Of a stretch of 64,000 nucleotides of DNA, positions 10,335 through 63,199 are shown piece by piece. The stretch is taken from NCBI GenBank assembly GCA_024679065.1, contig JAGIQG010000011.1, positions 46,872,001 through 46,936,000 of the forward strand, in the 5' to 3' direction. The DNA comes from Sphyrna mokarran (Eukaryota). The translations under genes were made by a program, and so were the position numbers. The notes under the pieces were generated by a model. That model saw only the letters and a program-made list of their open reading frames with translations. It was not told the origin of the DNA and made no database searches. Position 1 is the first letter of the stretch. Each line of letters opens with the position of its first letter.

Positions 10335-12620
10335 AACATTTCTCAGATTGCTGTTCTCACTAGGTATTCACTATCCCTTCTTATCTTCCCCTGTCTGATG
10401 CTGAATGTCTGTGCTCAGCAAAGGACTCAATTTTATACCCTTACACCTTCATCTCCGTGAACTTACAGCTCAGCATCATGCTGAACTCTTCTGTTGCCTC
10501 CATCTCTGTGCTCATTTTGAGCAGCATTCTCCTGCTACCTGACCCCGCCTCCTCTCCCTACCATCCCCATCCCCACCACCACCACCAAACATCAAACCAT
10601 AGGTTCCAGGACTGTCACTGACCTTGCCCTCTCTGAGCACCTTTCTTTCCACTGCTTCCAACCTCACAGTCCCCCAACCCTGCTCAGTCTGCTTCCAAAC
10701 TTCTTTCTAAAACCCACAAACAGGAGGTAGTAGATCCACCACTCCTTTCCTGCCCCACTGAATTCATTTCTTCCTATCTTGACTCCACCCTCTCTCCCCT
10801 CGTCCAGTATCTTCCCACATACTTCTGTGATTCCTGTGACATCCTATGTCATATCAATAGTTTCCAGTTTCCTGATCCTAATGGCCATATCTTCACAATG
10901 GACATCGAATCCCTCTACGTCCCCCATTCTCACCAGGATAGTCTTGAGGATCTCCATGTCAGGGATCTGATCAAGTCCATTCATAATATTCTCCTTTGTC
11001 TAACTGAACTTATTTTTGCACTCAACAATTTCCCCTTTAACTTGTCTTACTGGTTGAAAATGAAAGGTGTTATTATGGGTACCCACATGGGCCCCAGTTA
11101 TACCTGTCTTTTTGTGGGATGTGTGGAACATTCCATGTTCCAGTCCTACTCAGGCCCTCTTTCACAAATCTTTTACTAATATATTGATAACTGTATCAGT
11201 GCCACTTCATGTTCTTGTGTCTGGACTTACAAACATTTATCCATTTTCCTTCCAATTTCCACACTTCTCTTGCCTTCACATTTCTGAAACTTCCCTTTCC
11301 TCTGTTTCCACTTCTGGTGTTAGATTGTCTACCAATATTCATTTTCAAGTCCACTGATTCCCACAGCTATTTTGACTACAACTCCTCACTTCATGCTTCC
11401 TGTAAAAACTCCACCCCATTCTCCCAGTATCTGTGCTTTGGTTGCATTTGTTTCACTTGTGTCACCTTACAAAACGGTACATACTCTTGCAACTTCTGAC
11501 ATATCTTCTGTTTTCCTGAATCAAGCTGCCGTAGTAATTCCGCCCCCACCTGTGTTTGACAGGTCCCTCAACTGTGTCTGACCATCTCTTGTCCTTCTGC
11601 CCTCGCCTGTCTCTCCCAGAATCATGATAGGATTCTCTTTGTCTTCACTTTATATTCCACCAGCCTCCATATTCAATGGATTATCCTCCACCAATTCCAA
11701 CATGATGCCACCACCCAAGCAAATCTTTCTCTCCCTTCCCTGTCTGCATTCTGTAGGGACAGTTCCCTCCATGATACTCTGGTCACATCCCCTTCCCATG
11801 CAACCGCGGAAGGTATAATGTGTGTTCTATTACCTCCTCCCTCTTCACTAAAGGCTTGAAACACACCTTTCAGGCGAAGCAGCAATTCGCTTGCACTTCT
11901 TTTAATTTTCTTCACTGGATTCACTGCTCGCAATGCAGTCTCCTCTGCATCAGGGAGACTAAACACAGGCTGGATAACTACTTTGTGGAACGCCTTCACT
12001 CAGTTCACAAAGATGACCTCTATCTCCCTGTCACTTGCCATTTTAACCCACCATCGTGCTCCCAAACCCACATTTTTGTTCTTGGCCTACTGCAAAGTTC
12101 CAGTGAAGCCATCTCAACCTGGAGGAACAGTATGTCAACTCCTGATTTGGCACTTTACAGCCTTTTGGACTTAACATGAAGATGATGAACTTCAGACCAC
12201 GAACTCTGTCCTCCATTTTGATCTTTTTTTCCCCCAACCCTATTCCTTACATGACTATCTGTCACTTGCTTTGCATTCACAGACTGCTGACCCTTGTTCT
12301 GCTAGTAACACATTCTGCCCCCTTTCATTCCATTATTAAGACCTTCTTTTGTCTTCACCACTAACATTAACACTCTTTGTTTTGTGTCCATGACATCTTT
12401 GTCAATTTCTCCTGAACTCCCACGTATACCCGACCGTCTATTCTGCTAGACCTTTTCCATTCCCTTCTCCAATTATATAATCCCCCCCCCCTTCAGCTCT
12501 GAAGAAGAATCACACGGACTTGAAACATTAACTCTCCACGATGCTGCCGGACCTATTGAATCTTGCCATCATTTTCTGTTTTAAGTTCTGATTTCCAGTA
12601 TTTGCAGTATTTTGCTTTTA
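10335..12620 (+). mobile_element. Degenerate Penelope-like retroelement (RT plus GIY-YIG endonuclease, frameshifted)
   Basis: RT motifs MDIESLY, LTELIFALNNF and GVIMGTHMGPSYTCLFVG; GIY-YIG region CTSFNFLHWIHCSQCSLLCIRETKHRL..YFVERLHSV and CHFN; 3' pLTR-like tail containing CTGAAGA...GAAA. Confidence 0.85.
12495..12533 (+). ncRNA. Minimal type-I hammerhead ribozyme motif (degenerate) in the Penelope pLTR (family H2)
   Basis: agct-CTGAAGA(12499-12505)-agaatcacacggactt-GAAA(12522-12525)-cat-t-aact. The inferred consensus stem III palindrome ACGT has decayed to ACAT. Confidence 0.55.
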
Positions 12621-25765: not shown

Positions 25766-25853
25766 ATTAGAGGAAGAGCTGAAACCAATATAGAGAAGAG
25801 CTATGGATGAGGAACTAGCATCTGAAAAAACGGTAGCACTTAAAACTAGAAAC

Positions 25854-26053
25854 TACCAAAATAAGTGAAATAGGAAATAGAGTGGGATTTTCAGCTCCTT
25901 CGGCATCCTGCTTTTCTGCGCCATCCTGGTCCTCTGCCTCCTCTTTCCATGTCATCCTGTTGCTGTGCGAGATTGTGGAGCTATCTGTGCCAAGGAGGAT
26001 GCCGAAGGAGCTGAAAATCCCACCCTTTATATTCTATTTCACTTATTTTGGTA
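25854..26053. repeat. Inverted repeat (56/58-bp arms, 86-bp spacer) containing an inverted Harbinger transposase tail
   Basis: 25854-25909 pairs with 25996-26053. The spacer read on the minus strand gives LHNLAQQQDD / EEAEDQDGAEKQDAEGAENP. Confidence 0.85.
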
Positions 26054-26677
26054 TTATAGGATATATGATACGAGTGCCTGATGCCTTTTCTGGTTTTAAG
26101 TGCTACCATTTTTTCACGCTAGTTCCTTATCCACAGCTCTTCTATATATTGGTTTCAACTCTTCCTGCTATAGCCTATCACTGGCACAACAGCAGTCTTT
26201 TGTGAAAACTAAGCCAATTCTTTCATTCCCTGTAAGATTTCTCTTTTTATTTCTAACCTCTCATAACCTTACTTTATATGTGTTTATAAAATTCTTTACC
26301 GATTCTCTTTTTTACTTACCAGTTTTGTATCATACCTTCAAGTACCACTCTTTCTTTGTCTTTGCTTTCCTCAATATTTCTGTATTTTGACTTGTTTCCT
26401 TTTCTGTATTTCTATATTGTATATCAGTTTTTAGATCTTAATTTTAGGTTCTCAGCTTATTCAAGAAACTCCAGTTTTCCCTTGTCTTCCTGTTTGTAAA
26501 AAAATGTCTAATCTGCCCCTAAATATTCCCTTTTTAAACTTTTCCCATTATTTTCACAATGACATTTTAGTCCCCACAATCGAGAGAGCCAATGTAATTG
26601 GAGGAAACTGTTCAGAAATTGGAGAACAAGCTGAGCGAAATACCTAAGTGGCCAGAAAAATATCAGGTGAAGTTTGA

Positions 26678-27190: not shown

Positions 27191-27307
27191 GTGGAGATGC
27201 CGTCGTTGGACTGGGGTAAACACAGTAAGAAGTCTGACAACACCAGGTTTAAGATTTATAATAAATCGGTGGAACTTAAACCTAGTGTTGTCAGACTTCT
27301 TACTGTG
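27191..27307. mobile_element. Fold-back Penelope-type mini-element (family H3) with a 16-bp flanking direct repeat
   Basis: Arms 27221-27253 and 27275-27307 (32/33 complementary); CTGTGCTAAATGAAGT at 27177-27192 and 27303-27318. Confidence 0.75.
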
Positions 27308-36022: not shown

Positions 36023-36207
36023 TCATGATGTGGAGATGCCGGCGTTGGGATAAAACACAAAAAAATCCCACAACACCAGTTTATCAGTTTATTTGTAGCA
36101 AACACTGCAAGCTTTCAGAACAGCCTGTCCCTTCGTCAGGAGGCTGGGAGTTTGCTACAAATAAACCTGTTTTTGGACTTTAAATTGGTGTTATAGGATT
36201 TCTTTGA
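36023..36207. mobile_element. Fold-back Penelope-type mini-element (family H3) with a hammerhead core on the minus strand
   Basis: Starts catgatgtggagatgccggcgttgg. Minus strand 36105-36143 reads CTGACGA-agggacaggctgttct-GAAA-gct-t. Inverted arm gtttatttgtagcaaac / gtttgctacaaataaac. Confidence 0.7.
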
Positions 36208-39109: not shown

Positions 39110-40230
39110 TTCTGGACACTACCACATCAAATAGTCAAATGTATTTGAATTTAGCAGTTTAATATTGTTACATAATCTGGTCTATGGGCCTAGAAATAAG
39201 CAAGACTCCATTGGGTATATCAACAAAAAAATGCAAAGGTAAATGAACAGTGGGAAACATTTAAAGAAACATTTCAACATCTTCCACAAAAATGCATTCC
39301 ATTGAAAACAAAAGCTCAACGAGAAAGTCCACCTGTAGCTCATTCAAAAAGTATAGTGTTAGATTAAAGGAAGAAGCACACAATGTTGCAAAAAACAGTG
39401 ACTCGTCTGAGAATTGGGATCGTTTTAGAAACCAGCAGAAGGTTATCAAAGTTGATTTTAAAAGATGAAAAGTACAATAGGAGAGTAAACCAGCCAGGCA
39501 TATAAAAACGGATTGGAAGAGCTTTGATGAGCCTACATAAAAGAGAACAGCTAAAGTTCCTTAAATGCAGAAACAGGAGAAATTATCATGGGGTGTGCTT
39601 GTACAAAGAACACAAAGTTAACATGCGTGCAGAAAGCAAATGGGGCATTGGCCTTTATTACAAAGGATTGAGTATAAGAATAGAGAAGTATTGCTAAAGT
39701 TGTGCAGGGTCTTGGTGAGATCATATCTGTGTGTAGCTTTGGTCTCTTCATTTAAGAAAGGATATATCTGCCTCAGAGGCAGTACGGCACAGGTTCACTG
39801 AATTGGGCCCTGGGATGAGGAGATTGTCTGGTATGGTGAGAGGCAAGTAAATTGGGCTCATGTTCTCTGGAGTTTTGAAGAATGAGAGGCAATTTCATTG
39901 AAATCTACTAAACTCTGAGGAAGCTTGATAGTGTAAAAACAGAGATTGTTTCTGCCAGTTGGGAAGTCTAAAACAAAGGTATAGTCTCAGAATAAGAGGC
40001 CAATTATTTAGGACTGAGATGAGGAGAAATTGCATCACTCAGGGTTGTGAATCCTTGGAATTCTCTGGCCAGAGGATTGTGGATGTTGCATCATTGAATA
40101 CATTTAAGATTGGGAGAGACAGGGAAATGAGTAATAGGTGGAAAAAGGGAGTTGAAGCCCATGGTCAGCCATAATTGTATTGAATGGTAGAGCAGACTCA
40201 ATGGACCATGTGGTCCACTACTACATCTAC
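39110..40230 (+). mobile_element. CR1 LINE fragments (ORF2 middle, internally deleted, plus 3' end)
   Basis: YSLRIRGQLFRTEMRRN; 3'UTR cagccataattgtattgaatggtagagcagactc. Confidence 0.7.
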
Positions 40231-40486
40231 TTGTGTAGTTTTAAAAATTGGGGAAAATTAAAATGAAAAAAGTTAAAGTGGGGAGTTGATTAGAGGCAGA
40301 TGGCTAGAGAAATTCTGAGATGCGAATTAGCCTATCAATGGGAAATAAGTATTTTACCTTTGTGTAGTGAGAACTATGGGGCTACAAAAGTGGTAACTTC
40401 AAAGTGAAAAGAAAGCCGACTCCACAGAGAGATGAAATCAGCGGAAAAGAAATGGTGCAACTATACAGCCCTGACCACAAAAAAAA

Positions 40487-40830
40487 CATGTGGAGATGCT
40501 GGCGTTGGACTGGGGTAAACACAGTAAGAAGTCTGATAAGACCAGGTTTAAGCCAACTGATTTATTTGATAGTAAACTCACAAGTTTTGAGGTTTCCCTC
40601 TTCGTCAGGTAATGGAGAGTACTGGCCTCAGACAGAGCATATAACAGCACAGACAATTTACAGATTACTAACTAGAGTGCGAATCTTTACACCTAACCTG
40701 CTATTCAAGTCTTAAAGTGGCCAACAATGTGGCCGGTACTCTCCATTCACTTGACGAAGAGGGAAACCTCAAGTCTACTATCAAATAAATCGGTTGGACT
40801 TAAACCTGGTGTTGTCAGACTTCTCACTAT
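40487..40830. mobile_element. Fold-back Penelope-type element (family H3) with about 100-bp inverted arms, each carrying a hammerhead-like motif
   Basis: Arms 40521-40627 and 40731-40830; CTGACGA-A-GAGG-GAAA-CCTC on the minus strand (40578-40612) and TTGACGA-A-GAGG-GAAA-CCTC on the plus strand (40751-40770). Confidence 0.8.
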
Positions 40831-41589
40831 ACCAAAAAAAAGGAAGACAAGGGAGAGAGATGGTTAAATATCAGAGCTGCAGCAAGTTGCAGCTAAAGTC
40901 TCCTGAGAGAAACTGACCGTTTCCTCCTTGGCTGAACCAAAGAACCATTCCCCAGACATGGCCATCTTTACCTAATGGTGATAATTATTTGCTGAATTTA
41001 GCTCAGAATTACTCAATATTGGATGTTGTTTGGGAAAGGTAGTGTTTGAGTTCGGCCAAATGTAGATAGTTTTGGAGTCAAAAGGATAGTTCCATGTAAA
41101 ATTATGTGCATATAGCCATCAATATCTTTAAGTGTATTAATGTTTGTTGATAATACCAAGCTAAGTGGGGAGATATTATAGTCTTTCTTGTGTGTGTTTT
41201 TGTTTTTCTTTTAAGTTAATAAATATTCTTTATTCATTGTAGTGAAAGAGTGGGGGCTATGTCAAAATCATTTTTTCCCACATCATTAATGAGTATGTAC
41301 GTGCGAAGCTGGTGCTTTCGTGTCAGTTTGGTTATGGAACGTAATGTGCCATTATTTCATCTCTGGAGCTTAGGTTCAAAGGGTGTAATGTTTTTCTTTT
41401 TGCTAGCTAGAATGGCTCTTAGAAGAGTTTCTACGGTCTAGATTTTGTGAATTGTGGATGTGATGGTTGTTTTCCAGTCAACTCCATTGCCAAGCAAATC
41501 CACCCAGGAATTTTGCCATTCTGTATGCCTGTGGTTGGTTTTCACTAGTTGCATGTGAATATCAAATATTCTCTTGCATTTCTTCAAGA

Positions 41590-42910
41590 AATAAACTTTA
41601 CAAACCTGGTCACCAAAATTAGAGCAGATCTACAGCACTGGAATAATTAGCTGGCAGAATGCAATCTAAAAAAAACATTTTGCATAGTTTCATTTTTTTT
41701 CCAAGGTCTTCCTATCATTTTACCAAAATCATATTTTGTTATGGTTAACAAGCTGAAATCAACAGCAGGACTCCTAAATCCTGTAGAGCAAGACTTGAAA
41801 GGAAGCTGGGATGGTGAGCTAGCACTACATAACTTACTGTACTATTACAGAGCAGCCAGTATTCAAAAGGTTTTAAAATGGTGTCATGGCCTGAGTATAA
41901 ATTGGTGTCTTATGGACGTACATTCCTACTGCTCATCCTCTCTTTCTGCCTTAATTTGTGTCCCTCTATCCTTATTCCTTCTAAACCAACATTAACCCCC
42001 CCGTTGTGATTTCTACTTTAAAAATATGGAAACAATTTTGTTAACATTATTAAACTTGCCACTCCTTCTCTATTGAGCCCTATATGTATAACAATCACCT
42101 ATTGTTGCCTTCCAAGCTTGTCTCGGCTTTTGTCTTGTGGAGAGGGGACTCGAACATTTTAATGACTTGACTGTAGATGTGACCTTTGCCAGTTTCAGCA
42201 AGCTTGCAAGAAGATTTAACATGCTTCAATCTTAGTCTTTACTGTTATTTTTAAGCCTGGAGTTTTGTTTCCTTTCAATGCTTATCCTTTCCTTAACTAC
42301 CTCCAAATACATTCTGGAAGGGATTTTGTCGCTGCTCCAAACTTATGGATGTTTTATTTCAAGATTGTATGGTCTCATGCTATCCTCTGGACCCTCTCAT
42401 CTCCATAAAGATAAAAAATGATTGGATCAATCCACATCCTCCAGTACGCTGTTCAGCTTAATTCAGTTTAATGCTTTGCACAGAATTCACTTCAACAAGG
42501 CCAGAATCAGTAAGTTTATTTTTCAAGCACAAACAACAAACGTGACAAGTGTTTACTTGAACCTGCAGACCATATCCACATATTCTGGTTACACTTGAAG
42601 CTGGCTGATTTTTGGTCATCCTTCTTTAACATTCTGTCCAAAACCCTCGGTATTGACTTCCAGCCTTGTCTTTCAATAGCCATATTTGAAGTCTGTCCAA
42701 ACTGACTAGTCTCACTAAGATTGAGGCAGACGTCATTGTATTTGTTTCATTAATAGCTTGCAGGTGGATTCTATTAACTTGGAAGTTTCCCAAACTACCC
42801 AATGTTTCATCCTGGTTGGAAGACTTGATGTATTTTCTTCATTTGGAGAAAATTTAAATATGCCATAAGAGGGTCTACTGAGAATTTTTATCGCAGAGAA
42901 TAGCCATTTG
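41590..42910 (+). mobile_element. L1-clade LINE ORF2 C-terminal relic
   Basis: IRADLQHWNN, FQGLPIILPKSYF, GELALHNLLYYYRAASIQK (compare GGLALPN..YY.AA) and LIQFNALHRIHFNKARISKF, followed by a decayed CCHC region. Confidence 0.8.
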
Positions 42911-62230: not shown

Positions 62231-62415
62231 TGAGTATTCCACTGCTGACCTCTTCCAGTAGCTTTACCAGGCTGATCTGACAGTTTTAATTTGTCATGAA
62301 TTTAGATGTTTTCTGAGAATGAGCCCCAGTTGCAATTTCTGCTTAGTGAGTCCAACTCAGGAGTTGTTTCTTAATGGTCTCATTGCTCCTTGCTGTGGCT
62401 GCTGGGATATACACA

Positions 62416-62490
62416 ACACAGTAAGAGGTCTGACAACACCAGTTTTAAATCCAACCGATTTATTTGATAGTAGACTCGCAAGCTTTCGGC
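62416..62490 (-). mobile_element. Family H3 Penelope-type fragment retaining the CGAAAGCTTG 3' half of the hammerhead motif
   Basis: acacagtaagaggtctgacaacaccag...tttatttgatagtagactcgcaagctttcg matches 40519-40590. Confidence 0.7.
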
Positions 62491-63199
62491 TTTTTATCTA
62501 CATCATACGTGCACAACTGCCAGTCTCAGTTTCCCAAGCTGACTGTTAGTATAGATAAAGATAAAACAAAAGGGTATCTATCTCCCCTGTAACCTATACC
62601 AATGGCAATTGCCTATACCAATAGCAATATGGTACCCATTGGATATTCCAGATGGAGATTCAAATAAAACACCTTCAGTTACAAAACCTGCCTTTTGATC
62701 TGAAAAGTATATGGATATAAATAACTTCCTGTGTTCATCTGGTGCTTTTTAACCTTTCTTTGATCTAGAGAATTACATGAATAATTTACATCTCTAATGA
62801 AGACAAAAACATTTTCCTTAGACCTACTGTCTACAGTTTCCCATCTAAAAATGCCTACTAGCCATTTCCTGGCCCTCACCATTCTAACCTTGACCTTGTA
62901 AGTACTCAAACTTTTTTTTTCTCATTTATTTTACATCCCCAACCTAAACATTGTATTCCTAAAACATGTTAATTCTGAAATTAAGCATTTTCATAGCACA
63001 TTAATGCAGTGGTCTCTACAAATAGTGGAAAGTGAGACCCTGCCATCAAAAAATTCAGGTTTATAACACCAACTCAAAGGGAAAGAGTGGAAAACACACA
63101 CATCTAAAAGATGTGCTGGTCAGATGTATTGGCCATGCTACCTTCTCCCTCAGTGTACCCAAACAGGTGCTAGAATGTGGCAATTAGAGCATTTTCACA

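Follow-up and report, generated by a model that had tools for sequence, protein, structure and literature searches.

The fold-back structure at positions 40488-40828 of the window (the whole stretch of 64,000 nucleotides of Sphyrna mokarran contig JAGIQG010000011.1 that was analysed) is almost certainly made of two 5'-truncated 3' ends of an endonuclease-bearing (EN+) Penelope-like retrotransposon (PLE), set head to head. The joint reading, by which the two truncated ends were likely deposited in one insertion event and carry hammerheads that are probably dead, is held to be highly probable. The locus is ordinary retrotransposon debris, of a layout already published for the PLE class (PMC8557442, PMC3846280, PMC4209133). 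Its value is only statistical, in that such pairs constrain how PLEs complete insertion.

Structure of the locus

The features identified at the locus are the following.

40478-40486, no strand: probable decayed target site duplication (TSD), left copy, C plus A8, low complexity
40488-40731, minus strand: left arm with tail, 5'-truncated PLE 3' end (pseudo-LTR, or pLTR), 244 bp, 92% identical to the natural copy L011 over 247 columns
40488-40522, minus strand: PLE tail, 35 nt, extending up to the ORF start in full-length copies
40577-40612, minus strand: damaged minimal hammerhead motif of the left arm, with the GAAA-GCU core changed to AAAA-CU and stem I short of 1 nt
40631-40727, minus strand: pLTR upstream of the hammerhead, within the left arm and collinear in other copies (the spacer of the earlier note)
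40728-40731, no strand: inversion junction, up to 4 nt assignable to either arm (modal overlap against other copies, 4 nt)
40728-40828, plus strand: right arm, 5'-truncated and untailed 3' end of the same PLE, about 100 bp, delimited by alignment to copies
40746-40770, plus strand: hammerhead remnant of the right arm, with C3 changed to U and a 10-nt deletion
40833-40841, no strand: probable decayed TSD, right copy, C plus A8, low complexity

The inverted arms described in the earlier note are real. Residues 40523-40630 align to the reverse complement of 40728-40828, with 97 nt in between, and the two arms are 93% identical over 91 aligned columns. The intervening 100 bp or so, taken in that note for a spacer, are part of the left arm, since the whole 40488-40731 interval aligns in one piece in other genomic copies. 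The element starts at 40488. The left-arm end measures 244 bp and includes the tail, the right-arm end measures 97-101 bp and lacks it, and both are too short to retain any coding sequence. Identity of the left arm to the 5' pLTR of the full-length copy L063 is 79%. The imperfect TSD suspected in the flanks is probable; it is a 9-nt exact match (C plus A8), offset from the arms by 1 and 4 nt, of low complexity and weak taken alone.

The family is an endonuclease-bearing Penelope-like element

The 2.77-Gb genome was searched by similarity with three queries, which yielded 2,136, 8,066 and 1,600 first-look candidates, and 40 of each were scored. The family is a dispersed genomic repeat, the copies of which break off upstream at scattered points. 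Longer copies encode the end of a GIY-YIG domain upstream of the shared end, and copies with the same stem II as the window (L131, L119, L032, L031, L096) run upstream into the GIY-YIG coding region. The Pfam domain RVT_1, absent at the locus itself, has been identified in sister copies (E=1e-10 in L042, 4.2e-10 in L039) together with a YIDD motif. GIY-YIG (PF01541) is found in the same 548-aa frame as RVT_1 with E=2.7e-4 and 21.6 bits, slightly below the Pfam cut-off of 22.6, and a VVY...YIG motif is located at aa 447 of 548. None of the three frameshifted pieces of the older copy L031 matched Pfam. L063 is a partial tandem, in which the ORF is flanked by 709-bp direct repeats, 97.5% identical, its pseudo-LTRs, and the tail leads into the ORF start; L049 is similarly organized. 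The upstream reverse transcriptase (RT) and GIY-YIG ORF with pseudo-LTRs in these copies identifies the family as an EN+ PLE. The Penelope origin put forward in the earlier note is thereby confirmed, as the family does adjoin RT/GIY-YIG ORFs. In the near full-length unit of L063 (2580-5289) one frameshift separates the RT from the endonuclease region, and an ATG is missing where the ORF should start.

A linker of the form CX4CxxC is found between RT and EN at aa 410 of the L042 frame. According to the definition in PMC8557442, a zinc-finger-like CX2-5CxxC linker in this position defines Neptune and is common to Nematis. The linker sequence points to a Neptune-type family, and equally fits Nematis.

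Head-to-head pairs in the genome

Samples were picked by similarity to the queries and junctions were placed by BLAST, hence the counts that follow are not genome-wide rates. Ends of the family are bimodal, the two positions being about 36 nt apart: among 179 distinct ends from 131 loci, 81 are tailed, 94 untailed and 4 unclear. An inverted pair within about 1.5 kb was found for 33 of 85 focal copies. Fifty head-to-head pairs, that of the window included, were retained; there were 52 rows, two of which were occupied by L118 and dropped. In 46 of the 50, one end is tailed and the other untailed; of the other four pairs, one is tailed at both ends, one at neither, and two are unclear. The one-tail rule is thus obeyed by 46 of 48 classifiable pairs (p=4e-12 against 0.5). 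A TSD score of 8 or more was obtained for 37/50 pairs, versus 0.7% of mismatched flanks. The suggestion of the earlier note that the sequence inserts as inverted pairs agrees with these data.

Arms range in length from about 84 to 2,650 bp. In 18/46 pairs the untailed arm surpasses the tailed one on the 5' side by more than 60 nt, and the tailed arm is the longer in only 19/46. Lengths correlate within pairs (Spearman 0.44, n=34), and the element positions at which the two arms stop differ by no more than 40 nt in 16 of 34 pairs, where 5.5 are expected (p=5e-5). Independent arm lengths were rejected, because of this correlation and of the enrichment of near-palindromic junctions. A constant small lead of the untailed arm was similarly unsupported (9 vs 7).

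Arms of a pair are nearer to each other than to other arms, the non-CpG distance being 0.058 vs 0.126 in the 33/50 pairs having both arms of at least 200 bp, and when 65 candidates are ranked for each arm, the partner comes out on top for 26 of 66 arms; gene conversion at a later time may have contributed to this similarity. For the right arm of the locus, a short arm on which the test is uninformative, the partner is surpassed in closeness by at least 12 of 96 other arms (89 columns). Overlaps at the junction, scored for 39 of the 50 junctions and without a control, are positive in 18, zero in 4 and negative in 17, and range from -29 to +19, a mixture that does not demonstrate joining by microhomology. 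Pieces of tail and/or ORF start are found at the inversion junction in L112 (1616-1743), L120 (1604-1765) and L129 (1350-1415), and reach about 86-111 nt past the start codon. They suggest that synthesis jumped onto RNA located downstream of the sites of priming, which agrees with internal initiation.

Hammerhead motifs

The minimal type-I hammerhead deduced in the earlier note exists in the genome in intact form. Its 30-nt sequence has 51 exact matches, and the reversed control none. The consensus from which it was derived, assembled from both arms and the copies at 36105 and 62416, was a mixture of subfamilies, as stem II differs and is longer in the copy near 36105, and the copy at 62416 is cut before CUGANGA. 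The CUGANGA and GAAA core is present in the family along with a remnant of the palindromic stem III, and the core is intact in 17 of 36 parsed motifs from a set picked without the motif in the query. In all, 143 of 162 motifs could be parsed; both window arms are among the 19 that could not. Core conservation is inflated in the parsed set, since the parse tolerated few substitutions. Core changes in the 143 motifs fall at CpG positions (G8 to A in 21, G12 to A in 29, C7 to T in 23), and any other position of CUGANGA/GAAA changed at most 4 times. CpG sites are hypermutable, and a pattern of this sort is as expected of decay after insertion.

Stem II differs greatly even among otherwise close young copies. 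Pairing is nonetheless maintained: in 74 variants 2.70 of 3 pairs are formed vs 2.22 after shuffling (maximum 2.43), relatedness being uncorrected, and the third pair is G-C in 28 and C-G in 28. Stem covariation, the lack of which was named in the earlier note as a refuting outcome, is thus seen in stem II. Stem I shows no excess of pairing (3.16 of 4 pairs vs 3.09 shuffled, again uncorrected for relatedness). The two pLTR hammerheads of the partial tandem L049 (122 and 2509, oriented) have different stem II sequences.

At the locus each arm carries one minimal motif, pointing outwards and on opposite strands. The left motif (minus strand, C3 at 40608) keeps CUGACGA, the bulged A, the GAGG/CCUC stem II and its GAAA loop all intact, and has two lesions in the core GAAA-GCU, which reads AAAA-CU, plus the loss of 1 nt in stem I. 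In the right motif (plus strand), besides the C3 to U change, the 10-nt deletion takes away GAAA together with stem III and the cleavage site, and leaves stem I without its 3' half. The cores are broken in both arms, as the earlier note held, but it had recorded only the GAAA to AAAA change in the left one. No intact catalytic core is left in either arm, and judging from their sequences both hammerheads are probably dead. Rfam hammerhead families, which the earlier note had proposed as a check, gave no match in the window at E up to 5. A transcript of the locus is predicted to fold its arms into one long duplex of about 100 bp (-168 or -159 kcal/mol). The inverted layout provides no dimer partner in cis, because one motif is always antisense and the arms form this duplex.

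Origin of the head-to-head pairs

The explanation slightly favoured for these pairs is priming from both target strands. The GIY-YIG nuclease of the element would make a staggered cut of about 10-14 bp, and both target 3' ends would prime reverse transcription on element RNA, one at the tail end and the other about 36 nt further upstream. Both cDNAs would stop early (at 244 and about 100 nt at the locus), after which joining of their 3' ends and fill-in would follow. Copying of the hammerhead would be due only to its location, some 90 nt from the short end. On the tandem RNA of the parent element it would be active, probably by dimerization or aided by protein, and after insertion motifs would decay, family-wide mostly at CpG sites. 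The one-tail counts and the frequent TSDs accord with one insertion primed in this way. This scheme leans by analogy on work on a PLE protein of Anolis. As described in the parts of PMC11167929 dealing with its activity, the protein cuts and extends both strands, starting at two internal sites that bracket the tail; a dimeric state is predicted for it, and insertion in vitro persists when the ribozyme is mutated. In the same parts no difference between strands is reported in the use of start sites in vitro, which counts against the scheme. A pair found at 27191-27307 of the window, hammerhead-free and with a perfect TSD, counts in its favour.

One insertion may also have acquired its second arm by self-priming, through a fold-back possibly occurring on an antisense template, as proposed for rotifer Penelopes in the pertinent passage of PMC3846280. 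We regard this as a less probable but real alternative, for the near-palindromic pairs and for the locus as well. The excess of near-palindromic junctions fits self-priming too, as do the closeness of partner arms and, at the locus, the inclusion of the whole untailed arm in the tailed one. Yet copying back on the tailed cDNA cannot yield the 18 untailed arms that extend more than 60 nt beyond their tailed partners, an untailed cDNA cannot template a tail, and the tailed arm is too seldom the longer. Two independent side-by-side insertions, or an inverted arm produced by later recombination or repair, appear highly unlikely. The weak TSD of the locus and the right arm that is not closest to its partner would agree with independent events, but these predict about one half of tailed plus untailed pairs, and no shared TSD, against the 46/48 and 37/50 observed.

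The earlier note proposed a non-coding, retrozyme-like element bearing ribozymes, a reading under which the fold-back unit would itself be mobile, as a non-autonomous hairpin that uses its ribozymes. Short pairs are indeed common, PLE proteins can move pLTR-bounded sequences in trans according to the relevant passage of PMC3846280, and retrozymes are proposed as PLE derivatives in the corresponding part of bioRxiv 2026.07.22.740005. A distinct non-coding mini-element is nevertheless very improbable, as the arms are the ends of a coding PLE. The junction is spanned by the window alone, being absent from all other copies among the 40 scored of 633 candidates, and the 46 listed pairs are unlike in arm length and junction sequence. 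Both cores are broken, the motifs are inverted, no head-to-tail direct repeat or tandem array is found in 39500-42000, and the arms of a transcript would pair with each other. It is just as improbable that the hairpin or its ribozymes have been retained for a host function, whether to cut RNA or as a source of double-stranded RNA. In favour is the duplex of about 100 bp expected in every transcript that spans the locus; against are the broken cores, the indels and ordinary decay of the arms, and the many similar pairs.

Priming from both target strands could take place on a single RNA. In this bolder version, held to be rather unlikely, an RT-endonuclease dimer would prime both strands of one staggered cut from start sites 36 nt apart. 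Such twin priming, if true, explains the one-tail rule, the shared source of the arms, the coupled 5' ends and the TSD, as well as the pieces of tail and ORF start at three junctions. The thousands of stumps of this kind would in that case record, across the genome, how the second strand is made in Penelope transposition. A literature search, with limited reach into older literature, found no twin-priming model for PLEs. The near-strict one-tail rule and the pattern of arm lengths yield predictions for the published in-vitro Anolis system.

Comparison with known elements

Complex insertions of EN+ PLEs have been described as inverted 5'-truncated copies, the tail often being confined to one end and a TSD enclosing the whole unit (PMC8557442, PMC3846280, in the passages on such insertions). 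The locus shares the 5' truncation with the insertions reported there (Craig et al. 2021, PMC8557442, Fig. 2 legend; Arkhipova et al. 2013, PMC3846280), and its family shares the partial tandems, the inverted truncated copy, the 30-40-bp tail and the short TSD. Unlike those insertions, as far as the same passages describe them, the arms are here too short for coding sequence. The one-tail rule, counted here, is qualitative in them.

Minimal hammerheads in the pLTRs of PLEs have been published, and the sections of PMC4209133 that describe them report for Schistosoma dual motifs on opposite strands, 100-700 bp apart. Motifs of the family resemble those described there in CUGANGA, the bulged base before stem II, G10.1-C11.1 and GAAA, and also in the palindromic 15.2-16.2, the stem I of 4-5 bp and the highly variable stem II. 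In the subfamily of the window stem II has 4 bp and a GAAA loop, versus the 7-8 bp given for Schistosoma in those sections, and, unlike the motifs they describe, both copies at the locus are broken.

Poseidon of Anolis (PAc; Frangieh et al. 2024), in the parts of PMC11167929 describing the element, similarly has a hammerhead near the pLTR-ORF junction, a tail with two discrete end positions and an ORF start downstream of the tail. It differs in that the ORF here has its start beyond the tail, at about 125 nt downstream of the hammerhead core, instead of inside stem II. The CX4CxxC linker, which points to Neptune or Nematis, also sets the family apart from Poseidon.

Non-LTR retrozymes (Li, Clavereau, Pollet, bioRxiv 10.64898/2026.07.22.740005) are defined in the relevant portion of that text as tandem repeats arranged head to tail, in which successive units each have a complete motif. 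The locus is like them in being non-coding, in its type-I hammerhead and in its pLTR kinship, and unlike them in that its two ends are inverted, its motifs broken and its junction unique. Membership in this group, as characterized there, was rejected, since tandem units with at least two complete hammerheads are missing from 39500-42000. The label of non-autonomous fold-back element was likewise discarded, as no junction or ends shared by several copies were found among the 40 scored of 633 candidates.

Other remnants in the window

The mini head-to-head pair at 27191-27307 belongs to the same PLE family. It has arms of about 63 and 48 bp, one tailed and one untailed end, no hammerhead, and a perfect target duplication of about 15 bp. 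Inspection by eye of the pair at 36028-36204 revealed no clear TSD. This pair apparently joins a tailed and an untailed end of a more distant subfamily in inverted orientation; in one motif CUGACGA and GAAA are intact and enclose a longer stem II. At 1690-1790 and 62415-62491 there are solo fragments of the 3' end, from the same PLE family as the locus, that break off in the hammerhead or beyond it. The hairpin at 25852-26056, with arms of about 50 bp and a sub-threshold MIR839 match, does not match this PLE family. At 10703-11146 there is an old reverse-transcriptase remnant, the alignment of which to the family ORF covers 159 columns with 27% identity (E=5e-13); it is probably from another PLE family.
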